Made by a program: the position numbers and the translations under genes. Below are positions 2,653 through 40,927 of a stretch of 64,000 nucleotides of DNA, piece by piece. Source of the DNA: an uncultured candidatus Porisulfidus sp. Lineage in GTDB: Bacteria; Pseudomonadota; Gammaproteobacteria; Poriferisulfidales; Oxydemutatoraceae. A model generated the notes under the pieces. The model ran no database searches, was not told where the DNA came from, and saw nothing but the letters and a program-made list of their open reading frames with translations. Location of the stretch: contig OZ244052.1 in assembly GCA_965215125.1 (NCBI GenBank), positions 2,016,001 to 2,080,000 of the forward strand. The letters are read 5' to 3'. Each line of letters begins with the position of its first letter. The stretch's first letter is position 1.

Positions 2653-3939
2653 ATGCGCTCCATGTTGTGCGCACCGCAACTTGAAATTTTAATCGCAATT
2701 TTATTATTTGTCGCGATCATTCCTGCATCCTCGCAAGCTCAACCGAAGGTAATAGATAAAATCGTCGCAGTAGTCGGAGATGTTGCAATCAGCTCGCGCG
2801 AACTGGCAATGACGGTGGATCGCGTCAAGCAGAATATGGCGCGTCAAGAACAAGAGATTCCGGACTCCCAAACCCTGGTTCCTAGGGTTTTAGAACAGCT
2901 GATAGTCGTTAAACTACAACTCCAAGAAGCGAAACGCCTGGGTATTACGATAGACGAAATAGCACTTGATCAAATGCTTGCCAAAATTGCCGCCGATAAC
3001 GGTAAGACCCTTGCCGAGATGAAAGCCGAAATTGAACGCAGTCAAGGAAGTTATAGCGAGATGCGAGAGTCGGTGCGTCAAGAGTTCATCATCTCTCAAC
3101 TCAGGCAAAGCGTGATTAATAGTATAGTGGTTTCCGAGAGTGAAATAGAAGCCAAACTGAGAGAAATCAATGCGCAGACACTATTTAGTTTTTCTTATTT
3201 AGCGGCGGAATTACCGGAGGCGGAAAGTGAACGTGAAGAATTGACGCAATGGTTTCACAACCTGCGCCTTAAAATACTAAACGAAAACGATTTTTACGAT
3301 ATCGCGAAGCAAGCGGCGAAAAAAGCATCGGTAAACTATAAAAGATCGCAGCCTAGACGGCTAAACCAATTACCGAAGCTACTGCAAGAGAAAGTATTGA
3401 ATATGAATATCGGCGACATCACCTCGGTTATCAAGACTGCCGATACACTTTACCTATTTAGTTTAGACGGCAGACAGGCAGAACAATTACCGCAGATCGT
3501 TGAAAAGCAATATCATATTAGACATATCCTATTGAGATCCGATGCGATGTATTCCGATTCGTATATACGCAAAAAACTACTTGCGATCAAAAGACGTATT
3601 GAAAACGGCGAGAGCTTTGAACAAATGGCAAAAAAATACTCGCAAGACCCCGGTAGCGGCTTCAAAGGCGGCGACTTGGGATGGATCCCCACCGAAGGCT
3701 TGGCAGCGGAATTCGCACAGCAAGTGGAAAATGCACCACATCGCAAACTCATCGGACCTTTTGCGACCGCCTTCGGACAGCATATATTGGAAGTACTGGG
3801 CGAACGCCGACAAGATGTCAGCAACCGAATACAAAGACGAAACATCATTGCACAGCTACGCCAAGAAAAGTCGGGTGTCGAAATAAACGAATGGTTGCTT
3901 AGATTGCGAGAAAGCCGATATATAGACATCAGACTTTGA
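2653..3939 (+). CDS. surA: Periplasmic chaperone / peptidyl-prolyl isomerase SurA
   Basis: IDKIVAVV N-domain, parvulin motif HILL...FEQMAKKYSQDPGS..GGDLGW. The ORF-track start (2431) runs through the repeat; ATG 2653 gives 428 aa with a signal peptide. Confidence 0.92.
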   Translation: MRSMLCAPQLEILIAILLFVAIIPASSQAQPKVIDKIVAVVGDVAISSRELAMTVDRVKQNMARQEQEIPDSQTLVPRVLEQLIVVKLQLQEAKRLGITIDEIALDQMLAKIAADNGKTLAEMKAEIERSQGSYSEMRESVRQEFIISQLRQSVINSIVVSESEIEAKLREINAQTLFSFSYLAAELPEAESEREELTQWFHNLRLKILNENDFYDIAKQAAKKASVNYKRSQPRRLNQLPKLLQEKVLNMNIGDITSVIKTADTLYLFSLDGRQAEQLPQIVEKQYHIRHILLRSDAMYSDSYIRKKLLAIKRRIENGESFEQMAKKYSQDPGSGFKGGDLGWIPTEGLAAEFAQQVENAPHRKLIGPFATAFGQHILEVLGERRQDVSNRIQRRNIIAQLRQEKSGVEINEWLLRLRESRYIDIRL

Positions 3940-4913
3940 GACCACACAAAACCATTGCAATCACAGCTGCGGAACCTGCCGGCATCGGTCCCGACATACT
4001 GGCTTCGCTTGCTCATATACCGATTGCCGATGCCACACTTGCGGTAATCGGCAATGCAGAATTATTGGAGCTTCGCGCAAAACAAATCGCAAAACCTATT
4101 AAAACGTATACTTATACCGATGATACCGTGCAAACACATCGCGGCGATGGAACTTTGGCGGTCATCGATGTTGCGTTGCCGGTACCGGTTGTTGCCGGGC
4201 AAATTGATACGCGTAATGTTCCTTATGTGTTGGAGCAATTGGATATTGCCGTGCGCGGTTGCTTGCGGGGTTCTTTTGACGCACTGGTCACCGGTCCCGT
4301 CAATAAGGCAGCTATTTGTCAAGCGAGCATCCCTTTTCAAGGACATACCGAATATCTTGCACAAGCCTGCGATAGCGGTAGCGTTATGTTGCTCGAAGCC
4401 GAGGCATTACGCATTGCACTGGCAACCACCCACATTCCTTTATCCGAAGTGCCGAGACAACTCTCCCGTGATTTATTGACAAAAACAATTAAGATATTGC
4501 ACGACGATATGCGTCGTCGCTTTAAGATGGATGCGCCTCGTATCGCGGTATGCGGACTGAACCCGCATGCCGGGGAACAGGGTTATTTAGGATCGGAAGA
4601 AATTGAAGTAATCGCACCTGCGATAGCCGAATGTGCTGCACAAGGAATAATGACATTCGGCCCGGTCTCCGCCGATACTGCATTTACACCCGAGCAACTA
4701 CGGCAATGCGATGTGAGTCTTGCGATGTATCATGATCAAGGCCTTGCGGTTGTCAAGTATGCAGGTTTCGGGCAAGTCGTCAACATTACTCTGGGACTAC
4801 CGTTTGTGCGTACCTCGGTAGACCACGGCACCGCCTTGGAATTAGCCGGTAGTGGACAGGCTCGATCTACCAGCTTGGAACACGCGGTGCGCCGTGCAAT
4901 CCAATTATCCTAG
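3936..4913 (+). CDS. pdxA: 4-hydroxythreonine-4-phosphate dehydrogenase
   Basis: EPAGIGPD, GHTEYLA, GLNPHAGE, MYHDQGL, RTSVDHGTA motifs. Confidence 0.97.
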   Translation: MRPHKTIAITAAEPAGIGPDILASLAHIPIADATLAVIGNAELLELRAKQIAKPIKTYTYTDDTVQTHRGDGTLAVIDVALPVPVVAGQIDTRNVPYVLEQLDIAVRGCLRGSFDALVTGPVNKAAICQASIPFQGHTEYLAQACDSGSVMLLEAEALRIALATTHIPLSEVPRQLSRDLLTKTIKILHDDMRRRFKMDAPRIAVCGLNPHAGEQGYLGSEEIEVIAPAIAECAAQGIMTFGPVSADTAFTPEQLRQCDVSLAMYHDQGLAVVKYAGFGQVVNITLGLPFVRTSVDHGTALELAGSGQARSTSLEHAVRRAIQLS

Positions 4914-4924
4914 TGGTGGTATTC

Positions 4925-4970
4925 GGGGTTGTTGGAAAATACGGTTTTGCACGAACCGAACCGCTGGTGC
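4925..4970. repeat. Degenerate half of the GGGGCTGTTGAAAA repeat
   Basis: GGGGTTGTTGGAAAATAC..TTTTGCACGAACCGAACCGCTGGTGC resembles the terminal arm at 2289/2582. Confidence 0.5.
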
Positions 4971-5020
4971 TACTGCAACAAGTGGCAGTTCTATTTGTGC
5001 TTACAGACTTCATTATAATC

Positions 5021-5049
5021 TTGACTAGCATGTAAGAATTTTTTAAGAT
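5021..5049 (+). promoter_or_regulatory. Putative sigma70 promoter of the giant surface-protein gene
   Basis: TTGACT-17 bp-TAAGAT about 60 nt upstream of ATG 5110. Confidence 0.5.
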
Positions 5050-5109
5050 ATTCTACAATATGTTCATAATTAATATAATCGGGGAATCCAGCACAATAAA
5101 AAGGTAAAA

Positions 5110-8100
5110 ATGAAGCCCCTCTTGATCATTCTATTTGCCCTATTCAGCACAAATCTAATGGCTCAAACCGACATAGATAGGGATGGCGACGGTCTGATAG
5201 ATATTAATCATCTGGAGGATTTGGATGAAATCCGCCATCACTTAAACGGTTTGCCGCCGGCTTGCGGAGAAAATAACAACGAAGCCTATAGAGGCTATGA
5301 ATTAATAAGAAGCCTGGGTTTTAACGACGATACACGCTACTTGGATGCCGATGCCAACAAAGAGAGATGGACGACGGGTGCAGGTTGGCAACCGATCGGT
5401 GATTTTGATAATCCTTTCAATGCGCTATTCATGGCGAGTACCGAGACCTTGACTATTTCTAATTTGACGATAGACAAACGCAGTGAATCGAGTATAGGTT
5501 TGTTCGGTGTGTCTTTCGGTGGTATAGCCGATATTCATTTAAGCGATGTATCGTTTAAAGGATATAGCGTAGTCGGTGGTTTGGTCAATGATAATCAAGG
5601 TGTCGTCAATCAGAGCTACCGGCAGGCAAACGAGGCGATAAGCGATAACGGTGTGGGTGAAGCACAAGACGACTTGCAACGGGTTTCTTCGTTCTCGGAG
5701 TGGTCGTCGGCAAACTGGGATTTCACTGCCGGCGAGTATCCGGGTTTGCAGTATGCGGTGGGCAACGACGAGGATGGCCCTGCGTGCGAGACACCGCCGC
5801 CGGATACCGAACTGCCGAACTGCGGAGCTTTATTGGCGGAACAGAGATTTGAGCTGGAGCGTATAGAATTAGTCGGGGCAGGGTTATTACCCGACTTCGA
5901 CCTTGCGATCGACAACTATGTTGCAGGTGTTTCCGCCGAGACAACGAATGTCATGATAATCGTGCGTGCGAACCGTAAAGATACACCGATTAGAATAAAC
6001 GGTAATGTCGTATCGGTTGATGCGGTCAATGTCGTGGAATTAGCCGAAGCAGGGAACACGCAAATTGAAGTCGTGAGTGTAGCGGAGGCTACAACCTATA
6101 CCATCGTAGTCAGGAAAATAACCTTGCCGCCGTGCCATGCTTTAATAGAATTTCCCGATGACAACGACGGCATAGCCCAAACCATAGATATTGACAAGAA
6201 TAACAACGGCTTGATAGAAATCTGCGATTTGGAAGGTCTCGATGAAATACGCTATCGATTGAATGGCACCGGTTATAAAACAAGTGCCGATGCGGTGGTA
6301 ATAATGACAGGTTGCCCTGCCGACGGTTGCAGGGGTTATGAGCTAACCAAAGATCTAGACTTCACGGATAACGATAGCTACCGCATAGCAGACAATAAGG
6401 TAATATGGACTGCCGATAAAGATAGAACGAATTCAGGCTGGACACCTATTGATCCCCGTGCTCCTTTGACCGCTATATTCGAGGGAAACAATCACACTAT
6501 TGCTAATTTATATATCAATATGAATGATTCGGTAACAATAGGTTTATTTAGCGTCATTAGATCCGAGATCAGGAATGTCAATCTATCGAATGTGGACATC
6601 AACGGGTTTACTATAGTAGGTGGATTGGTCGGCTTAAATGGAGGTCTAATCATCAATAGTCGGATGACCGGTAGCGTTTCCGCAACCTTATCTAATCTCG
6701 GTGGACTGGTTGGTGTTAACGGTGTTAATGCCGAAATCAGTAATAGTTCTGCGAGTGGCACTGTCACCGGCCCGGCTACCGTAGGCGGCTTGGTTGGTCT
6801 TAATATTAGCATAATCAGAAATAGTTTTGCGAGTGGTATTGTCACCGGCACGGATAGCGTAGGCGGATTATCGGGAATTACGGGTAATGATGGACTCGTC
6901 ATTAATAGTCACGCCGACAGTACGGTGAACGGCACGGAAATGGACGATACCGGCATAGGTGGGCTAATCGGTACCAGTAGTGGTTTTATCATGGGTAGCC
7001 ATGCAAGCGGTGCCGTTAATGTTGACGCACAGGGGAATGATACCGGTGTAGGTGGCTTGGTCGGTCAAAATTCTTCTTTAATCATCAACAGCTATGCGAC
7101 CGGTGCCACCCGCGGTCATAGCAGTGTGGGTGGCTTGGTGGGATTAAGCGAGGAGGGTATGTCGGGTAGTTTAATGACAATCATCAACAGCTATGCGACC
7201 GGCGATGCGAGCGGCACGGGAAATAACAATAAAAACATAGGCGGTTTGATCGGCCATAACAACAAAGCGCGTATTATAAATACTTATGCCGAGGGCGATG
7301 TATCGGGTATCTCAAATGCGGGTGGTTTAATCGGTCTATCGACGAGCGGCACGATTGAAAACAGTTATACGATCGGTGCGGTGCGTGGCACGGGAGACGA
7401 TAACAAAAACATCGGTGGGATGGTCGGTGCGACTTCGGACACTGTTATTATCACCGCCAGCTATTGGAATAGAGACACCGGTGGACAAGCCACTTCCGCC
7501 AGCGGCACGAGTAAAACAAGGATGGAACTGCAATCACCGACTGCACCGGGAAGCACTTCAACCGAGATTTATTACAACTGGAATCCAGACTATCCGGCAC
7601 ATGCCGATTGGGATTTCGGAGACTCGCAGACCTATCCGGCACTTCGCTATGCCGTCGGCCCCGACGAAGATAACGCCGCCTGCGACGACGACCCCGATAC
7701 GATATTGCCTCAATGTAGCTTATTGTTGCCCGATCAACCCGGTCGCGATCGGGGTTTAGATTTCGTATTTTTCTTGTTGGATGCAGACGACGCTATTTTA
7801 GAACTGGAGCCGTCACTCTCTCCGCTTGTCAACGAATATAAGCTCTTCGTTGCCGGTGATTTGAATACCATACGACTGAGACCGTTTGCGGTCAACGGTG
7901 GTGCTACAACGATTAAAATTATAAAAGACGAAGAGAGCCCCGAAGAGAATTATTTTGCCGGCATGAATAGCGGTGACACGAGTAGTACCATAACTTTGGA
8001 CGATGCGACGACCCCCCTAGTCGTTACGGTGGCAGAGACCATAAACAGCCTCGAGATCGAAAATGTCTATCGGTTTGGGATAACGAAAGTGTCGCCTTCG

Positions 8101-33228: not shown

Positions 33229-35826
33229 ATGAGAACCGCAAACGATATCAGGCAATCTTTTTTAGATTTTTTCGAGGCAAAGGAACATAGCGTCGTGCCT
33301 TCGAGCCCACTTATACCCGCCAACGACCCAACATTGTTGTTTACCAATGCCGGGATGGTGCAGTTTAAGGATATTTTCTTGGGTAAAGCGCAAGCACCGT
33401 ATCAACGGGCGGTCAGCAGTCAGCGTTGTATACGTGCGGGTGGCAAGCATAACGATTTAGAGAATGTGGGTTATACCTATCGCCATCATACATTCTTTGA
33501 AATGCTGGGCAATTTTAGTTTTGGTGATTATTTCAAAAGAGAAGCGATTGCTTATGCGTGGGAGTATATCGGCGACATATTGGCGTTGCCGGTAGATAGG
33601 TTATGGGTTACGGTTTTTGAGAAAGACGACGAAGCTGCCGATATTTGGCTCAAAGATATAGGAATTAAACCCGAGCGTTTGGTTCGCATCGGCGAGCGCG
33701 ATAACTTTTGGGCAATGGGTGAGGTAGGTCCGTGTGGTCCTTGCACCGAGATATTTTATGATCACGGTGAAAAAATTGCCGGCGGTGCGCCCGGCACCGC
33801 CGAGCAGGACGGCGATCGCTATGTAGAGTTATGGAATCTTGTGTTCATGCAGTACGAGAGGAACGCTGCCGGCGAATTGTCGGATTTGCCGAAGCCCTCG
33901 GTAGATACCGGCATGGGGCTTGAGCGTATCACTGCGGTGATGCAAGGGGAGTATGATAATTATCGCACCGATTTATTTTTACCCTTGATTGAAGCGGTCG
34001 CAAATCTGAGTTCCGCCGAGTATTTGGGTGACACCTCGCAAAAGGTGATTGCCGACCATCTTCGTTCCGGTAGTTTTTTGATTGCCGACGGTGTCGTGCC
34101 GTCGAAGGAGGGACGAGGCTATGTATTAAGGCGGATTATTCGTCGCGCTTTACGCTACGGTCATAAACTTGGTATGGAGGAGCCTTTCTTTCATAAATTA
34201 GTGTTGCCACTGGTAAAAAATATGGCTGATGCGTATCCGATATTAAAGGAAAAACAAACACATATAATGGAAACCTTAAAAAAAGAAGAGCTACGTTTCG
34301 GCGAAACTTTGAATGTAGGTTTGAGTATTTTGGAAGACCACATCAAGGAGATGTCGTCTGATGTTTTGGCGGGTGATCTGGCATTTAAGCTCTACGATAC
34401 TTATGGCTTTCCGTTGGATATCACCGAAGATATTGCTCGGGAACATAACCTGAAGGTCGATCGTGTCGCTTTCAACCGTCTGATGGACGAGCAACGCTCG
34501 CAGGCTAAGCGGGCGAGTTGCTTCGTGGACAATACCGAGATATTGGATATTACCTTACCGGCACAGGCTTTCAGTGGTTATCAAAAAACTCTGGAGCAGA
34601 GTGTTGTCAAGGAGATCTTCTGCAACGGACAAAAAGTTGAGGCGATCAATTCCGGAGAGGCGGCGACGATATTATTAGACAGCACGCCGTTTTATGCCGA
34701 GTCGGGCGGTCAAGTCGGTGATATAGGGCGGTTAGAGTCGGAATCGGCATTGTTTGAGGTGGAGGATACCCAAAAACAGAGTGATTATCATAAGCACATA
34801 GGTGTGCTCAAGCGAGGGACTTTGACCGTGGGCGAATCAGTGCAGGCGTGCATAGACGATGTGCGCAGAAAGGCTATCGTATTGAATCACTCGGCAACCC
34901 ACTTATTGCACGCCGCGTTGAGGCTGGTATTGGGTGAAGGCGTTGCACAGAAGGGTTCTTTGGTGACCGATACGCATTTGCGTTTTGATTTTTCGCACCA
35001 CACCGCAGTGACCGACGATGAGATTAAGCGCATAGAACAAATCGTCAACGAGCAAATACGCCTAAACATCAAGACCGAAGATGAAGTTATGCCCAAAGAC
35101 GAAGCAATGAAGCGCGGCGCACTTGCGTTGTTCGGAGAAAAATACGGCGAGACGGTGCGGGTGATCGGAATGGGGGATTTTTCTACCGAACTGTGCGGCG
35201 GTACGCATATCGATAGAACCGGTGATATCGGTTTGTTTAAGATCATCTCGGAAGGTGGTGTTGCGGCGGGGGTGCGCCGTATAGAAGCGGTTACCGGCAA
35301 AGCTGCGATAACACGAATGCAAGCGGATGAGTTGTGTCTGGAGACATTGCAGTCGTTATTAAAAACTTCGGCTACCGAGATTACCGATAAAGTCAAGCAG
35401 CTGCTACAAACGAATAAACGGCTGAAGAAAGAGATAGAAAAGCTGGCAACCACCGCCGACGGTGATGGTGCGTTGCTCTCTAAAGCACAGGAGATAGCAG
35501 GCATACAAGTTGTGGCAGCGCGGGTTGAACACGCCGACGCAAAAATAATGCGCAAACTGGTCGACCAAATGAAAATGAAGCTCGGAGATGCTGCGATTAT
35601 TTTAGGTGCCGAGAAAGACGATAAGGCGATATTGATCGCCGGCGTTAGCAAAAGCTGTGTAGACCGCATCTCGGCGCAACGATTGATTAATGCAATCGCG
35701 TCACAGGTCGACGGTAAAGGCGGCGGACGCGACGATATGGCGGAAGCCGGCGGTAAAAACCCGGCAGCTTTGGATAAAGCATTGGCATCGGTTCCCGAGT
35801 GGGTGCGCAAACATTTGGCAGCTTGA
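33229..35826 (+). CDS. alaS: Alanine--tRNA ligase
   Basis: LLFTNAGMVQFK, HHTFFEMLGNFSFGDYFK, DTGMGLER, HSATHLL, ELCGGTH. Confidence 0.98.
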   Translation: MRTANDIRQSFLDFFEAKEHSVVPSSPLIPANDPTLLFTNAGMVQFKDIFLGKAQAPYQRAVSSQRCIRAGGKHNDLENVGYTYRHHTFFEMLGNFSFGDYFKREAIAYAWEYIGDILALPVDRLWVTVFEKDDEAADIWLKDIGIKPERLVRIGERDNFWAMGEVGPCGPCTEIFYDHGEKIAGGAPGTAEQDGDRYVELWNLVFMQYERNAAGELSDLPKPSVDTGMGLERITAVMQGEYDNYRTDLFLPLIEAVANLSSAEYLGDTSQKVIADHLRSGSFLIADGVVPSKEGRGYVLRRIIRRALRYGHKLGMEEPFFHKLVLPLVKNMADAYPILKEKQTHIMETLKKEELRFGETLNVGLSILEDHIKEMSSDVLAGDLAFKLYDTYGFPLDITEDIAREHNLKVDRVAFNRLMDEQRSQAKRASCFVDNTEILDITLPAQAFSGYQKTLEQSVVKEIFCNGQKVEAINSGEAATILLDSTPFYAESGGQVGDIGRLESESALFEVEDTQKQSDYHKHIGVLKRGTLTVGESVQACIDDVRRKAIVLNHSATHLLHAALRLVLGEGVAQKGSLVTDTHLRFDFSHHTAVTDDEIKRIEQIVNEQIRLNIKTEDEVMPKDEAMKRGALALFGEKYGETVRVIGMGDFSTELCGGTHIDRTGDIGLFKIISEGGVAAGVRRIEAVTGKAAITRMQADELCLETLQSLLKTSATEITDKVKQLLQTNKRLKKEIEKLATTADGDGALLSKAQEIAGIQVVAARVEHADAKIMRKLVDQMKMKLGDAAIILGAEKDDKAILIAGVSKSCVDRISAQRLINAIASQVDGKGGGRDDMAEAGGKNPAALDKALASVPEWVRKHLAA

Positions 35827-35827
35827 G

Positions 35828-36457
35828 GTGCGCACACGGATTAAATTCTGCGGCATAAACAAGCAGTCCGATTTCGCTTATGCGGCATCACTGGGTGCGG
35901 ATATCGTGGGGTTGGTTTTCTATGAGGCGAGTCCTCGCTATATTGATATTGCGCATGCGCAAAGCCTAATGCACAAAGCCGATAGATCGTTAAAAGTAGC
36001 GGCTTTGTTCATGGATGCCGACCATGATTTTATCGCCGACATAGCCAAGCAGATCAATGTGGATTATATACAATTTCACGGCACCGAATCGGTGGCGTTT
36101 TGTACTTCGTTTTCTTTACCTTATATCAAAGCGATACCCATGGCAGACGAAGCACAGGCAAACGAAATGATAGAAGCGCATCGCAATAGTGCGGACATAC
36201 TGTTGCTGGATGGCCATCGTGTCGGAATGCCCGGTGGCGGAGGGATTACTTTTGATTGGCGGGACCTCTCTAATATCAATGCTTCAATATTCGTTGCCGG
36301 TGGATTGAATCCCGAAAATGTAGCACAAGCCATTGCACAATGCCGTCCGCAAGGTGTGGATGTCAGTAGCGGTGTTGAATCAACCGTCGGAGTCAAGGAC
36401 CCTGCATTGATGAAAGCCTTTGCTCAAGCGGTACTGCGTGCCGATTCGAAACGATAA
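35828..36457 (+). CDS. trpF: Phosphoribosylanthranilate isomerase
   Basis: RIKFCGI, QFHG.E, LLDG..GGGGITFDW, AGGLNPENV, VDVSSGVE; GTG start just after the alaS stop. Confidence 0.95.
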   Translation: MRTRIKFCGINKQSDFAYAASLGADIVGLVFYEASPRYIDIAHAQSLMHKADRSLKVAALFMDADHDFIADIAKQINVDYIQFHGTESVAFCTSFSLPYIKAIPMADEAQANEMIEAHRNSADILLLDGHRVGMPGGGGITFDWRDLSNINASIFVAGGLNPENVAQAIAQCRPQGVDVSSGVESTVGVKDPALMKAFAQAVLRADSKR

Positions 36458-36487
36458 GAATGGTTGCAGCGCATTCTGCACAAGCTA

Positions 36488-36523
36488 ATTCCCCTCCTGT
36501 GGAGGGGTGGCAGGCGCAGCCTG
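36488..36523 (+). repeat. CCCCTCC repeat module at the left edge of the prophage remnant
   Basis: ATTCCCCTCCTGTGGAGGGGTGGCAGGCGCAGCCTG, cut short before the usual ACGGGGTGGT. Confidence 0.8.
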
Positions 36524-36644
36524 TGTGCGGTGACAGAGAATTTGACAGAAGCGATTTTTAGCGGGATTTGACGGAATTTGGCGGTATTGCTTGCTTTCCG
36601 AGCGCAAAAGAAGTCTCGCGTGCTGTCACTGGCTCGCAACGGGG

Positions 36645-36657
36645 AATCAATGACTTA
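36645..36657 (+). promoter_or_regulatory. Candidate IHF binding site in an att-like region
   Basis: AATCAATGACTTA is an exact match to WATCAANNNNTTR; TGACAGA direct repeats lie ~110 bp upstream. Confidence 0.45.
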
Positions 36658-36841
36658 CGAGCCGAACTTTCGCGCAATAAATCGGTGAATTTTAGGGTAT
36701 TAAACCTGTTTTAACCTTTGTTTAATTAGCTTTCAAAGGATTATTGAATGTGTATTTAACATAACGTAACCTTCGCGCTAACTCGCGCGCACAAACCTTT
36801 GTACAAAAACGGCACTTTTATACAAGTAATGCCCTGCTATT

Positions 36842-37327
36842 TTAGGCTAACGGCAGGCTGATAAATCGGGCGATAATCTCCTCAATTTCACTGCGACCTT
36901 CGTTTGATAATCCGAGAAACGGACGCGCCGGAATATCTCCCCAAGGAATAGGGCGGCCGTGCCTATCACTACCAAAGCTACCTCTTCCTGAACCAAATTG
37001 ATGTGTAGCTGCGTAGATAACATTAGTGCCTGCGATGGCATAATCTTTACCGAAGGCTGATGTGATACTGTTTGCGAGCCGACCTGTTTGCTGTAGCTTC
37101 TGCCCCGGCCAATAGCCGGATTTCTCGCGCTGTTTGATTGTTGTGTCCGACAACGGCACCCATGTCTCACCATTCGGTGCTTGTTCGGACTGAAAGGCTT
37201 CCTCAATATTATCTACCAACACACCGGCAATCGCCTGCATTGCAGGTGATAGGTCGTCACCGCGACGTGCCAGAAAGTTTAATGATTGCAGTGCCTTTTT
37301 GTCTTTGATTTTAATATCTATTTTCAT
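36842..37327 (-). CDS. Phage virion morphogenesis protein (Mu gpG-like)
   Basis: F.SEQAPNGETWVPLS..T, L.QTGRLANSI, GTNVIYAATHQFG, IPARPFLGLS. Confidence 0.92.
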   Translation of the reverse strand: MKIDIKIKDKKALQSLNFLARRGDDLSPAMQAIAGVLVDNIEEAFQSEQAPNGETWVPLSDTTIKQREKSGYWPGQKLQQTGRLANSITSAFGKDYAIAGTNVIYAATHQFGSGRGSFGSDRHGRPIPWGDIPARPFLGLSNEGRSEIEEIIARFISLPLA

Positions 37328-37342
37328 TATGCTATACTTTAA

Positions 37343-37441
37343 GTGAGGGTTGTGCGGACTGAATTATCAGAGTTAGGTCGCCAACATAATTTAGTAATCA
37401 TTAAGTGCCTAACCACTTAAGCGAAATCACCCAACCCTCAC
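37343..37441 (+). ncRNA. Candidate structured small RNA convergent with the MuF-nuclease gene
   Basis: Extended -10 TGCTATACT at 37330-37338; 10-bp terminal stem GTGAGGGTTG/CAACCCTCAC; internal 7-bp hairpin whose CCTAAC loop is complementary to GTTAGG (37372-37377). Confidence 0.5.
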
Positions 37442-37449
37442 CCTTTAAT

Positions 37450-38787
37450 CTACTTATTTTCATACAACAACACACCCTTGCGTTGATTGTTAATATAGTT
37501 TACTTTACTGGTAAATATAGCATTCAGAAACAAACTGCCATCTTGATTTTCTCGCACAATAATCAGCATGTTTTTTTTGCTCTTAAAAGATTTTATAAAT
37601 TGCCTGCGAAAGCCATCTTTGTATTCTGTCAACCAAACCTCATTAGGCTTTTCTAGCGTCGGTAATATAAAGTTAGCAAACCTTTCTCTTTGGTGCTCTC
37701 GCTTCAGCATCATATGTCGCATATGCTGAAGTTTAACAAAAACTGGTTCAACTGGTGTATTGATTTGCCTCCAACCCTTGCCCTGAAAAATGACTCTGTT
37801 AATTTGCTTTAAGGCTCCGCTTAACGATTGTGCGCTAGGCAAAACTTTAGGTGTCTCATCTAAAAATTTAGAAGGATAATCTTTTATGCTGGGTAATCCG
37901 TAGTCTTTATAGTTTGGTTGATTGGGTTCTATGATGGCGACACCTTTGCCACGACCGCCGACTTGATCGGGCAATGCGCCGAGCTTATCCCACAAAGCCC
38001 ACCTAGCACCCGGGTTATAACCGAAGCTGGCATCGGGTGCCTCTAAAAATGTTTGGCCCGCCGCATCCTTGCCTCGATACCTGACAGCTTGTTGGGTTAG
38101 CACTTCGCCTGTATATTTATCAACGCCGACTTCTTGAGTGAAGGTCTCCAGATGTCCTTCACTCGTACCAACTTTCAGTCCACGAGATTTAACTTGTCGC
38201 TCGGTTAGTGTCCGCACACGACACCGGCAATTCCAGCCGTTAGGCGGATAAAAGGTGTCCCAGAACGGATCGTCAAAGCGGAAGACTTTGCCATGTAGCT
38301 TGCGGTGCGCCGGACGAGTGCGAGAGTCCATCACGGCGAGGTATTGCCAGTATTTTCTTGTACCGATGCGCTGTGTTGCCAGTTCTACCTGTTGTTTGTA
38401 TCTACCCGCACTATAAGCGGTATTTAAGTTGGTTCTAAAGATGGTTTTAAGCCTATTTACCGAACCCAGTTGCACTAGTTCAGCGGTGCCGTCGGGAGCC
38501 TCTTTTACGCGTCTACCCCACCAGCCGAGCTTCTGCAGTTTCGGTTGTAGTTCTTTCTTATAAGTATGGAAAGCGATACCTTCGGAGATTGCTTTATCGG
38601 TCTCATTACGGATAGCCCGCAATACTTCCATTTTGGTAGCTTTGGCAATCGTGAATGCTTTCGCGTTTGCTTCGGCTAGCGATTCGTGCCAGTCCCATGT
38701 GATACGATAGCCTTTACTTCTAAAGTATTCAATAGCATCACTCGGTTGGAGTTTAACCGCAAACCCGAGATCAACTGCTTCAGGCAT
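37450..38787 (-). CDS. MuF (Mu gp30-like) minor head protein with a C-terminal PBECR2-like nuclease domain
   Basis: AFTIAK, RLKTIFRTN..AYSAGRY, YLAVMDSRTRPAH..HG..F..DDPFW..YPPNGWNCRC (MuF); tail RERF..ILPTLEKPNEVW..RRQFIK..YINNQRKGVLLY recalls PBECR2. Confidence 0.85.
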   Translation of the reverse strand: MPEAVDLGFAVKLQPSDAIEYFRSKGYRITWDWHESLAEANAKAFTIAKATKMEVLRAIRNETDKAISEGIAFHTYKKELQPKLQKLGWWGRRVKEAPDGTAELVQLGSVNRLKTIFRTNLNTAYSAGRYKQQVELATQRIGTRKYWQYLAVMDSRTRPAHRKLHGKVFRFDDPFWDTFYPPNGWNCRCRVRTLTERQVKSRGLKVGTSEGHLETFTQEVGVDKYTGEVLTQQAVRYRGKDAAGQTFLEAPDASFGYNPGARWALWDKLGALPDQVGGRGKGVAIIEPNQPNYKDYGLPSIKDYPSKFLDETPKVLPSAQSLSGALKQINRVIFQGKGWRQINTPVEPVFVKLQHMRHMMLKREHQRERFANFILPTLEKPNEVWLTEYKDGFRRQFIKSFKSKKNMLIIVRENQDGSLFLNAIFTSKVNYINNQRKGVLLYENK

Positions 38788-39140
38788 TGAGCCGACCCCA
38801 AGTATCTGCGGCGAATATGATCCTTGTCAATAAATCATGCAAACTTTCGCCATCCATATTTGGATATCGCTCGGCGAGCAGACCCAGAATATAATCGGGA
38901 TTCTCGTCTATGGCATCAAGCAACGGTTGTGCTAAAGATTCAGCTATTTGTTGCTGTGTATTATTGTCTATGGATGACAGTATTGCCTCCAACGCCTCTT
39001 CCACATCGGCAGTCTCGGCAAAGTCCGATGTTTGATTACCCGCCGGTGGTGCGATCGGTATTCCAACATCGTCTACTTCAATCTTATAAGTCTGTTCAAT
39101 ATGTTCTTTCGTTGGACGATAGCCCATACGATAGATAATT
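38780..39140 (-). pseudogene. C-terminal fragment of a Mu gp29-like (DUF935) portal protein
   Basis: YRMGYRPT.EHIEQTY..DFAE..LAERYPNMD..L.RIIFAADTWGR; overlaps the MuF start as in Mu-like phages; 5' part replaced by IS sequence. Confidence 0.75.
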
Positions 39141-39580
39141 TCATCTGCTGGTCTCGGCTCCAGTGGAACATGATCTTGCATCTAAACTCGGTGCCATTGT
39201 CGCAGACGATGCGTGCCGGCTTTGCGCCGAGCCGGCCTATCAATTCAGATAGATAATCTGCTACAGATTTGCCGGTAATCGAAACATCAACAATCTGCCC
39301 GACACATTCACGGCTGAAGTTATCTACTATGTTCAATATCCGAAAGCGTCTACCGTCGCTGAGCTGGTCATGCACAAAGTCCATTGACCAGCACTCATTG
39401 ACCCTAGTCGGTGTTGTCGGCACGCCACGTGGACGACACAGCTTCTTGCGCTTCTTAGTTCTCAATTCAAGCCCGAGCTTCTTATGAAGCCTATAGGTGC
39501 GCTTCACATTGACCACCCGTCCTTCGCTCTTTAGAAGCGCATGTAGCATCTTATAGCCATAATGCGGATACTAGATTGCC
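39135..39580 (-). pseudogene. IS3-family transposase OrfB fragment
   Basis: YGYKMLHALL..VNVKRTYRL..NECWSMDFVHDQLSDGRRFRILNIVDNFSRECV..IVCDNGTEF; ends before the catalytic Glu region; in-frame TAG upstream; no IRs found. Confidence 0.85.
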
Positions 39581-39736: not shown

Positions 39737-40927
39737 ATGAAAGCACAAGAGCAAAAAGCCGATATATCCGGACATTTCGGTCCTTACGGAGGACGCTTTG
39801 TCTCGGAGACCCTGATGTGGCCCTTAGAGGAATTGGAAGCCGCTTATCTGCGCTATAAAGACGATGCCGATTTCATTGCCGAATACGAGAACGATCTGCG
39901 CGATTATGTAGGCAGGCCGAGTCCGCTTTATCTTGCGGCGCGATGGAGCGAGATTTTAGGTGGTGCACAGATTTACTTAAAGCGAGAGGACTTAAATCAT
40001 ACCGGTGCCCATAAGATCAATAGTGCTTTGGGTCAAGCTTTGCTCGCCAAGCGTATGGGTAAACAGCGAATTATTGCCGAAACCGGTGCCGGTCAGCACG
40101 GTGTCGCAACGGCGACGGTGGCTGCGCGTTTGGGTTTGGAGTGTGTTATCTATATGGGTGATGAGGATATCAAACGACAAAAACCCAATGTATATCGCAT
40201 GGAATTGCTCGGAGCCGAGGTCGTTCCGGTAAAAAGCGGTTCGCGTACCTTGAAAGACGCGCTCAACGAAGCGATGCGCGATTGGGTGACCTATGTAGAT
40301 CAAACCTTCTATATTATCGGGACGGTTGCAGGACCTCACCCTTATCCAACAATGGTTAGGCATTTTCAATCGGTGATAGGACGCGAGACCAGACAACAAA
40401 TTCTGGAGTTGAACGGCGCACTGCCGAGTGCGTTGCTCGCTTGTGTCGGTGGCGGCTCCAATGCGCTGGGTTTATTCCATGCTTTTCTGGGCGACGAAAC
40501 CGTTGAATTGTACGGTGTAGAAGCCGGCGGCGAAGGCTTGGAGGGCGATCGACATTCGGCATCGCTCAGTGCAGGCAAGCCGGGGGTGTTGCACGGTAAC
40601 CGCACTTATTTACTGGAGGATGGCGACGGGCAGATACTACCGGCACATTCGGTATCGGCGGGTTTGGATTATCCCGGAGTCGGTCCCGAACACGCATGGC
40701 TGAAAGATACCGGCAGAGTCTCCTATGTTACCGTCACCGACGGTCAAGCCTTGGATGCATTCCACCAATTAACCCGTTGCGAAGGTATTATCCCTGCTTT
40801 GGAAACCAGCCATGCCTTAGCTTATACCACACAACTCGCAAAACGCTATGCGCATACCGATGCGATCGTTGTCAATTTATCGGGGAGAGGGGATAAAGAT
40901 TTAGAGACGGTTCGCAGCTTCGTCTAA
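39737..40927 (+). CDS. trpB: Tryptophan synthase beta chain
   Basis: [54 protein letters not shown]. Confidence 0.98.

Follow-up and report, generated by a model that had tools for sequence, protein, structure and literature searches.

Within a 64,000-nucleotide (nt) stretch of the genome of an uncultured Candidatus Porisulfidus sp. (GenBank assembly GCA_965215125.1, contig OZ244052.1; the whole stretch is termed here the window), positions 37343-37441 of the + strand are predicted to be the gene for a folded small RNA of about 100 nt, which would be transcribed from its own extended -10 promoter element and which lies just 3' of, and convergent with, the gene for MuF-PBECR2, a phage protein ending in a predicted RNase domain. 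More generally, comparisons of related loci suggest that antisense small RNA genes occupy the 3' flank of PBECR2 genes, in almost all of the loci inspected, both in Mu-like phages and prophages and in stand-alone cassettes. The linkage between RNA and PBECR2 is strict, and it is independent both of gpG (the phage gene beyond the RNA in the window) and of the MuF N-terminal domain. Here the nuclease gene of a mobile element is accompanied by an RNA, in a linkage that is unusually broad and strict. The explanation favored here, with something short of even confidence, is that the RNA is the antidote of the predicted PBECR2 RNase, which it would neutralize through its fold by binding the nuclease domain.

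According to Iyer et al. (2017, PMC5512222), PBECR domains are predicted RNases that are packaged with MuF and injected, and they occur in up to 26% of phage 'polyvalent' proteins, their targets and control being unknown. In the same paper, a PBECR domain at the C-terminus of MuF counts as a standard architecture of the Mu type rather than as a classical polymorphic toxin with an immunity gene, and the corresponding domain of Mu's own MuF protein (gp30) counts as an inactive PBECR that may bind RNA. This weakens the premise of a preliminary description of the window, made from its sequence, that an immunity gene is to be expected after the MuF nuclease.

A structured RNA element between MuF-PBECR2 and gpG

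The MuF-PBECR2 gene ends with a stop codon at 37450-37452 (- strand) and gpG starts at 37327 (- strand), leaving a gap of 122 nt. Within this gap the preliminary description had noted a -10 element, a 10-base-pair (bp) stem, a hairpin and the motif GTTAGG, all of which are read directly where it placed them. The -10 element of the small RNA gene (TG-C-TATACT; 37330..37338, + strand), analogs of which occur in distant loci, precedes a predicted RNA start at about 37343-37346 (+); a weak -35-like hexamer, TTAATA (37311..37316, +), lies 16 nt before it, is not conserved in stand-alone copies and is a putative promoter part at most. The predicted RNA body (37343..37441, +), which is delineated by the covariance models, pair counts and strand asymmetry described below, is a three-way junction closed by helix P1, whose 5' arm GUGAGGGUUG (= GTGAGGGTTG; 37343..37352, +) pairs with its 3' arm CAACCCUCAC (= CAACCCTCAC; 37432..37441, +). 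Inside P1, the 5' arm of P2, CUGAAUUAU (37359..37367, +), pairs with its 3' arm, AUAAUUUAG (37386..37394, +); this covarying, long-range helix takes the place of the CTGA-ATTA-TCAG mini-hairpin of the preliminary description and carries the hexamer GUUAGG (37372..37377, +) in its apical loop. P3 is the hairpin UUAAGUG-CCUAAC-CACUUAA (37401..37420, +), the loop of which (37408-37413) is complementary to that hexamer. After P1 comes a U-rich tail, CCCUUUAAUCUACUUAUUUUC (37442..37460, +), which includes the stop codon of MuF-PBECR2 and is at best a weak candidate for a terminator; relative to other copies of the same class, it contains an insertion of about 15 nt.

A second copy of the RNA, 78% identical, occurs in the same genome, and when the family's 19 genomes were searched by blastn, 9 copies came to light; they are spread over 4 genomes, which all belong to one genus. 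A covariance model (R1), built on the + strand from these 9 copies, recovered 18 distinct full-length copies in 4 of the 5 genomes of the genus, and a second model (R2), built from all 18 copies, found 20 places in 4 of the 53 genomes of the order, all of them in the same genus. A search of Rfam 15 with window positions 36000-39000 gave 0 matches at E <= 10, and a search at E <= 1 with 28 related loci gave two chance-level, unrelated rows (a microRNA among 13 of the loci and CyVA-1, elsewhere in its locus, among 15). With its 20 copies in a single genus, the element defines one new RNA family or more, to which the loci beyond the genus add several more candidate families.

The 18 copies split into two groups, termed here class 1 (which includes the window copy) and class 2, that differ in sequence in all three helices and yet have an identical architecture: P1 closes the fold, P2 ends in a large apical loop, and P3 is a hairpin whose stem has 6-7 bp and whose loop has 6 nt. 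Thus P1 consists of GUGAGGGUUG/CAACCCUCAC in class 1 and of GUGUGUGGCAAGC/GCUUGCCACGCAC in class 2. In the 18-copy alignment--which is fitted to the model, and so favors the structure, and whose members are kin within one genus rather than independent--95.0% of 577 cells are paired, versus 76.2 +/- 1.3 in shuffles (0/500 of which reach the observed value) and 34-41% in slid-partner controls. Both sides have changed in 22 of the 33 pairs; by helix, the count is 7 of 11 pairs in P1, 9 of 14 in P2 (helix 3 of the pair count) and 6 of 7 in the P3 stem. When the nine class-1 copies are aligned by MAFFT only, the same helices appear, with 7/33 pairs compensatory. The loops behave differently from the helices: GUUAGG is kept at the P2 apex in 18/18 copies, and the P3 loop is CCUAAC in 15/18 and CCUAGC in 3/18, a variant that keeps a U.G pair with GUUAGG on the + strand and that would be C.A on the other strand. 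That GUUAGG and CCUAAC are kept while every helix is rewritten between the classes argues that both hexamers matter. Judging by their complementarity, the P2-apex and P3 loops can pair with each other (i.e., kiss); on either strand the two hexamers could also form an alternative helix, at the cost of P2 and P3.

The comparative evidence, taken together, points to a + strand RNA. For the nine class-1 copies RNAalifold yields -30.7 kcal/mol on the + strand versus -21.8 kcal/mol on the - strand, and nearly all of the cells broken on the - strand in this class are A.C or C.A, which is to say G.U on the + strand. A strand-symmetric consensus free of G.U pairs, computed on the MAFFT alignment of class 1, leaves 9 G.U versus 0 A.C. 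(This consensus replaced a strand test that used pairs common to both strands' RNAalifold structures; only P1 was common to the two, because the sense strand prefers a GGUUAGG/CCUAACC helix.) Signals flanking the fold have the same direction. A -10 element lies 4-5 nt before P1 in 18/18 copies; it reads TGnTATACT in most, four copies having TA, GA or GC in place of TG and one having TACACT. Within the window this element is not significant on its own (5 promoter-like sites versus 2.2 +/- 1.7 in shuffles), and its weight comes from its conservation across copies rather than from its own score. In the 8 class-1 copies other than the window copy, five or six T follow directly after P1, and the PBECR2 stop codon, TGA, lies inside P1.

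Some observations count against a + strand RNA or limit the evidence for it. On its own the gap of the window folds more stably on the - strand (-37.2 kcal/mol, z -3.9, with 0/200 shuffles as good) than on the + strand (-29.9 kcal/mol, z -2.8, with 3/200 shuffles as good), these being single-sequence values. The count for P1, P2 and P3 over all 18 copies, 53 G.U versus 5 A.C, points to the + strand but comes from an alignment that was itself fitted to a + strand model, and class 2 alone, under the consensus free of G.U pairs, gives 3 G.U versus 5 A.C and hence no strand signal. Among the RNA classes outside the genus, which were labeled by eye (A, B, C, G and H) and whose MAFFT alignments are poor, the strand test gives 2 versus 2 for A and 5 versus 2 for H, and B and C fold no better antisense. 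The preliminary description had proposed a structured + strand RNA of about 100 nt with its own extended -10 element, and had pointed to conserved structure in homologous loci, conservation of the antisense -10 element and an Rfam search as ways of examining it: covariation, G.U asymmetry and the conserved -10 element all speak for such an RNA, and no Rfam family is matched.

Linkage to PBECR2 within and beyond the genus

Every one of the 18 RNA copies lies directly 3' of, and convergent with, the end of a PBECR2 frame (...FWNAIP...Y.D.QR.G.LLY...). A complete gpG frame adjoins the RNA in only 3 copies, namely the window copy and those of loci L023 and L026, and a full-length MuF-PBECR2 is present together with a complete gpG in the window and L023 only, L026 having a truncated frame of 256 residues; at L005a and L029 gpG is reduced to its start or to a 92-residue fragment. 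The remaining copies accompany stand-alone frames of about 130-225 residues, which have their own start codons (MSKQVGG..., MNQKHQVGG...) and sit among unrelated genes; stand-alone PBECR2 frames of 173-180 residues carry the RNA without MuF or gpG. Counted by genome, matches to PF18810 (the Pfam model of PBECR2) and to the RNA number 4 and 4 in G000 (the genome of the window), 5 and 6 in G016, 5 and 5 in G017, 5 and 5 in G018, and 0 and 0 in G015, and the coordinates of the two abut in the cases compared.

Two features of the surroundings may be added. L023 (G000:C1, at about 450 kb), which is in the same genome as the window, has a second full-length MuF-PBECR2 (446 residues), a class-2 RNA and gpG, and probably lies within a more complete Mu-like prophage. 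The stand-alone cassettes L002, L005, L008 and L021 adjoin open reading frames taken by eye for ATPase-like genes (with N-termini such as MKISKLKIKNIKCF... and MLTKVTIRNFKLFEE...) and frames taken by eye for translated repeats, flanks that hint at variable islands or defense islands.

PBECR2 loci were drawn from species-representative genomes (36 loci), viral contigs (22), metagenomes (17) and 401 Pseudomonadota genomes, a Pfam scan of which found PBECR2 in 30 genomes (and in 0/14 control genomes). Removal of near-duplicates left 72 unique loci outside the genus, at which gpG homologs were sought by jackhmmer and were found downstream of PBECR2 in 57. The gap between PBECR2 and gpG measures at least 89 nt, with a median of 134 nt; 48 of the 57 gaps are 89-158 nt long, 9 are 221-521 nt long and 0/57 are shorter than 30 nt. 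In four cultured Mu-like phages without a Pfam PBECR2 domain (Mu, BcepMu, D3112 and Shewanella MuM16-1) the distances from gene F to gene G are -4, -4, -1 and +9 nt.

When 38 non-redundant gaps of 90-170 nt were scored in both orientations, a promoter score of at least 9 of 13 was found in 19 gaps antisense versus 0 sense, a T-run at the far end (at least 6 in 8) in 19 antisense versus 0 sense, and the two together in 11 antisense versus 0 sense. Read antisense, the gaps at the loci outside the genus show a -10 element, often TGnTATAAT, a few bases before a closing stem (and in several cases a full TTGACA-16/17-TAnnnT promoter); the stem itself, of 8-13 bp, encloses 50-100 nt; and a T-run overlaps the stop codon and C-terminal Lys codons of PBECR2. 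Some loci, such as L132, L133, L136 and L097, have canonical hairpin-plus-T terminators that would work for the antisense strand only. Of the 15 loci that lack gpG, at least 9 carry such an element all the same, as judged by eye, including the stand-alone PBECR2 genes L139 and L140 in other taxa, and PBECR2 loci from two sister genera all have the same layout (7/7), as judged by eye, yet with other sequences and without an R2 match. Outside the genus R2 gives weak matches (E 0.002-0.009), in the right place and on the right strand, in two Campylobacterota-type contigs. The linkage is seen in Pseudomonadota, Nitrospirota, Ignavibacteria-type and Campylobacterota-type records. A second viral scan with a wider alignment returned the same contigs again, and tblastn of two PBECR2 tails against 50,697 cultured phage records found no match.

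The largest class outside the genus is recognized by eye from common junction motifs (GUCGAGAU, AUGAAGG and GGGACGCC), and 15 of its 18 predicted pairs are compensatory; its PBECR2 domains are each only 32-47% identical to that of the window. In this class (L072, L074, L076, L048 and others) the antisense -35 hexamer (TTGACA/TTGCCT) overlaps the complement of the gpG Shine-Dalgarno sequence, so that the small RNA promoter and the gpG ribosome site use the same bases on opposite strands. At the other end of the gap, the PBECR2 proteins of many loci terminate in ...GK, ...KK or ...PKK, and these Lys codons, together with the stop codon, supply part of the antisense T-run; protein tail and RNA terminator may therefore constrain each other. 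A Campylobacterota-type contig, L055, has six copies of the RNA gene at 2974-5245 (-), arranged partly as a 251-nt tandem unit repeated 4.0 times, each unit running from the last ~32 PBECR2 codons through an RNA with a TGATATAAT promoter to the opening codons of the gene that follows; the repeats may be a real amplification of dosage or an assembly artifact.

The window copy itself belongs to a phage remnant. The MuF-PBECR2 gene (37450..38787, -; 445 residues) matches the Pfam families Phage_Mu_F at residues 58-191 and PBECR2 at residues 347-443 (about nt 37459-37749), and is assigned to phrog_220, 'minor head protein and DNA pilot'. Beyond the RNA lies gpG, a virion morphogenesis / tail completion gene (36842..37327, -; 161 residues; Pfam Phage_tail_S); on the other side lie the C-terminal fragment of a portal gene (38780..39181, -; phrog_113) and, upstream of MuF-PBECR2, an rve transposase fragment (39073-39549; Pfam). 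Outside all of these lie genes of the host, trpF (35690-36457) at one end and a trpB-like gene (39737-40927) at the other. The phage genes at this locus are a prophage remnant, as the portal C-terminal fragment shows: about 2.4 kb (36842-39549) containing the portal fragment, MuF-PBECR2, the RNA and gpG are wedged between trpF and the trpB-like gene, and the part of the prophage that survives is exactly the neighborhood of nuclease and RNA. The window copy looks recombinant, in that its RNA is of class 1 and yet the end of its protein (LLYENK before the stop) and the bases just past the stop resemble class-2 loci; about 15 extra nt lie between P1 and the stop (37442-37460, compared with 1470-1480 of L002).

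A further peculiarity of the nuclease genes is a poly-A tract (A7 or A8) some 130 nt ahead of the stop in the PBECR2 coding sequence, found in most copies of the genus; in the window it lies at 37571-37578 (T8 on the + strand, A8 in the gene). The tract differs as A7 versus A8 in L017 and the class-2 copy of L016, is A8 in L014, and is replaced by a different sequence or is absent in L015, the class-1 copy of L016 and L020. At this site or close to it, by reading, the frame is lost in the apparently frameshifted PBECR2 copies of two sister genomes, where KKICW replaces KKNML. Such breaks may be due to long-read homopolymer error, phase variation or slippage. For this reason the idea of an intact RNA persisting next to decayed nuclease genes was abandoned: the frames break at the poly-A tract, where sequencing errors or slippage are possible.

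Possible roles of the RNA

What the RNA may do depends in part on what its protein partner is. PF18810 matches the window protein (residues 347-443) with 65.5 bits against a cut-off of 27.1, and matches the stand-alone copy with 72.8 bits; PADLOC found no match to the stand-alone or fused PBECR2 forms. The PBECR2 alignment has a nearly invariant His, Lys, RER motif, DGS, Asn and Arg, residues that are assigned by alignment only; in the His column the window copy has His and L074 has Arg. The last 176 residues were modeled by AlphaFold2 (AF2) with a mean per-residue confidence (pLDDT) of 90.9. A sequence search of solved structures returned nothing below E 0.11, and a Foldseek search of the Protein Data Bank (PDB) nothing at E <= 0.001. 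Among the top rows of VIA-align are the colicin D tRNase (Z 3.9 and 3.2), three CdiA-CT toxins (Z 3.4, 3.4 and 2.8), a colicin-type sequence-specific RNase (Z 3.1) and BrnT (Z 2.6), weak structural neighbors of the model that are consistent with a BECR assignment.

As an antidote, the RNA would be made constitutively from its own promoter, so that a cell carrying or producing the nuclease would come to no harm from it. Neutralization would occur through the RNA fold, the nuclease domain being bound as type III antitoxins bind their partners; as a second or alternative route, the RNA could pair, antisense, with the nuclease mRNA at its 3' end. This fold-dependent reading is favored because conservation of the junction and loop sequences goes far past the needs of pairing with the RNA's own complement, and because the module persists as a self-contained pair. 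Several points tell against it. The structural matches to BECR RNases (Z <= 3.9) fall below the reliable level of Z 5, and the full prophage copy in the same genome (L023) has Tyr at the conserved His. The window terminator is weak, and a terminator scan, which called 0 terminator-like sites, missed it. The pairing of GUUAGG with CCUAAC lacks covariation, both hexamers being invariant or G.U-tolerant; thus, of the pseudoknot in the preliminary description, the complementary hexamers stand (18/18 copies) and their pairing gains nothing from covariation. Finally, linkage and position fit a purely cis-acting antisense regulator equally well.

Such a regulator, which is a serious alternative and only somewhat less probable, would pair with the MuF-PBECR2/gpG junction of the late mRNA, or with the 3' untranslated region of a stand-alone gene, and would thereby trigger cleavage or decay and lower nuclease expression, its fold serving only for stability and first kissing contacts. 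Its mode of action would be that of the type I antitoxins whose genes overlap the 3' ends of their toxins, or that of the OOP RNA of phage lambda on cII. It accounts for the convergent layout, for the full complementarity to the intergenic region (the 3' end of the RNA overlapping the stop and last codons), for promoter and terminator signals that point antisense and for an RNA tied to PBECR2 rather than to gpG; complementary hairpin loops, moreover, are typical of kissing between an antisense RNA and its target. What it explains less well is that junction and loop sequences are conserved beyond the need of pairing with their own complement, and that two intramolecularly complementary loops are kept in 18/18 copies. 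L055, where six RNA copies stand beside mere fragments of the flanking genes, is weak evidence in this respect, inasmuch as repetition raises dosage under either model. A different possibility is a part in virion biology rather than that of an antidote: as a cofactor, chaperone or packaged component, the RNA might bind the MuF C-terminal domain, and its complementary loops, which are indeed present, might join one molecule to another, in a loose analogy with the pRNA rings of phi29. MuF, for which the annotation is DNA pilot, belongs to the head proteins, and yet stand-alone cassettes of PBECR2 and RNA exist without head genes, Mu itself has neither gap nor RNA, and Rfam, which includes pRNA, gives no match; Mu-like phages, furthermore, package with a terminase. 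This role is accordingly judged improbable, despite the RNA-binding role predicted for the inactive PBECR of Mu gp30 by Iyer et al. (2017, PMC5512222).

Less probable still is a trans-acting regulatory small RNA--a phage 'moron' whose single-stranded 6-mers target mRNAs of the host or of other phages, and whose proximity to PBECR2 is merely historical. A promoter and terminator of its own and the invariant, unpaired GUUAGG and CCUAAC are what such an RNA would have, but its position is fixed beside PBECR2 in all of the loci examined across phyla, where the RNA classes are entirely different, and fixed linkage combined with free turnover of sequence is unexpected for a regulator of outside targets. 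It is very unlikely, in turn, that there is no antisense RNA and that the structure acts instead in the sense (-) phage mRNA, as a processing site, terminator, attenuator or translational control of gpG. The better fold of the window copy on the - strand, the end of the element 15 nt before the gpG start codon and the equally good folds of classes B and C on both strands would suit a sense-strand role; the A.C mismatches of the - strand, however, become G.U on the + strand, sense promoter and T-run signals occur in 0/38 gaps, the canonical terminators of some loci would work only antisense, and the element persists where no gpG follows. A DNA-level role like that of Mu's central gyrase site was rejected, since the Mu site lies after G rather than between F and G and since the helices covary with G.U asymmetry.

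That the gap encodes a small protein, such as an immunity peptide, on one of its strands is barely credible. It contains four frames of at least 20 residues, and the two 25-residue frames within the element, when compared among class-1 and class-2 copies, show no coding conservation on either strand, which agrees with the preliminary description's view that no credible immunity frame is present. The - strand frame, 'MVRHL...', is open in 8/9 class-1 copies, but its variable columns by codon position number 12/25, 14/25 and 9/24, with no excess at the third position; a stop interrupts the frame in one copy, GTG would have to serve as the start in the window copy, and L021, the one class-2 copy read, has neither the start codon nor the open frame. 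The + strand frame begins at the RNA 5' end, but meets a stop at codon 5 in 5/9 class-1 copies and early stops (codon 9-12) in 4/9 class-2 copies, and the two conserved 6-mers sit in different frames in the two classes.

Known systems and biological meaning

The systems that come nearest differ from this one in partner, layout or both. As in the type III toxin-antitoxin systems (ToxIN, CptIN and TenpIN), a predicted endoribonuclease gene adjoins a structured and possibly pseudoknotted RNA, there is no protein antidote, the setting is phage-related and, in the one distant contig L055, the RNA occurs in six repeated copies. Unlike in those systems, the putative toxin is a BECR-type PBECR2 domain rather than ToxN/AbiQ (Pfam matching only Phage_Mu_F and PBECR2, and PADLOC nothing), and the RNA is a single unit of ~100 nt that is downstream, convergent and equipped with its own promoter, where type III has ~36-nt tandem repeats upstream on the same strand. 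Hence the resemblance to ToxIN would be one of possible mode of action only. The preliminary description had spoken of a MuF-nuclease/RNA pair: the coupling of RNA to PBECR2 stands, being seen in the copies of the genus, in several phyla and in the cassettes, whereas the pair falls outside the definition of ToxIN-like type III systems.

Type I pairs that overlap at their 3' ends include TxpA/RatA and BsrG/SR4, and nuclease-type type I pairs include SymE/SymR and RalR/RalA; many type I pairs are prophage-borne. The 3'-overlapping pairs resemble the arrangement predicted here in having a convergent, cis-encoded small RNA with its own promoter and terminator that is complementary to the 3' end of the toxin message. 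Here, however, the partner is a predicted RNase domain in a protein of 173-445 residues rather than a small membrane peptide, and fold and junction sequences are conserved beyond antisense need; SymR, for its part, covers the 5' end rather than the 3' end of its target. The OOP RNA of phage lambda, likewise short, has a promoter and a terminator of its own and is read against a protein gene (cII), whose 3' end it overlaps. It differs, however, in its size, its fold and the gene beside it, and it is known neither to be linked to a nuclease domain nor to occur in stand-alone cassettes. The pRNA of phi29, a phage RNA of ~120 nt tied to head morphogenesis, shares the feature of two mutually complementary loops; the present RNA differs in lacking an Rfam match, in belonging to Mu-like phages, which have a terminase, and in occurring also in cassettes without head genes.

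A parallel in position exists with the MuF polymorphic toxins, which, according to Jamet et al. (2017, PMC5576092), have a MuF N-terminal domain, a variable C-terminal effector, a protective gene directly 3' and stand-alone C-terminal cassettes. The RNA sits in the slot that the immunity gene occupies 3' of the effector in those modules, but as an RNA gene on the opposite strand rather than as a protein gene; and MuF-PBECR2 is seen by Iyer et al. (2017, PMC5512222) as an injected phage effector rather than as an exported toxin. No description of a PBECR2-adjacent antisense RNA was found in the literature, although the supplements of Iyer et al. (2017) may show the conserved gap.

An RNA gene placed directly after PBECR2 provides a concrete handle on how the nuclease acts and on how phage and host survive it. 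If the RNA neutralizes the protein, then the reach of RNA antitoxins would grow to include a new nuclease fold and effectors that virions deliver; should it be no more than an antisense RNA, it would still be a new and widely conserved control point in the head-gene operon of Mu-like phages. In either case there are, besides the family of this genus, several more candidate RNA families for curation of the Rfam type. A broader proposal, put forward more tentatively than the antidote role itself, is that PBECR2 RNases and their adjacent antisense RNAs form a widespread, previously undescribed two-part system in which the folded RNA is the immunity factor for a packaged and injected nuclease. If so, lysogens and phage-producing cells would be protected by the RNA; hosts would keep or amplify stand-alone cassettes of PBECR2 and RNA as toxin-antitoxin or anti-superinfection modules; and the multitude of RNA classes would be the outcome of an arms race, as it is with toxins and their immunity proteins.

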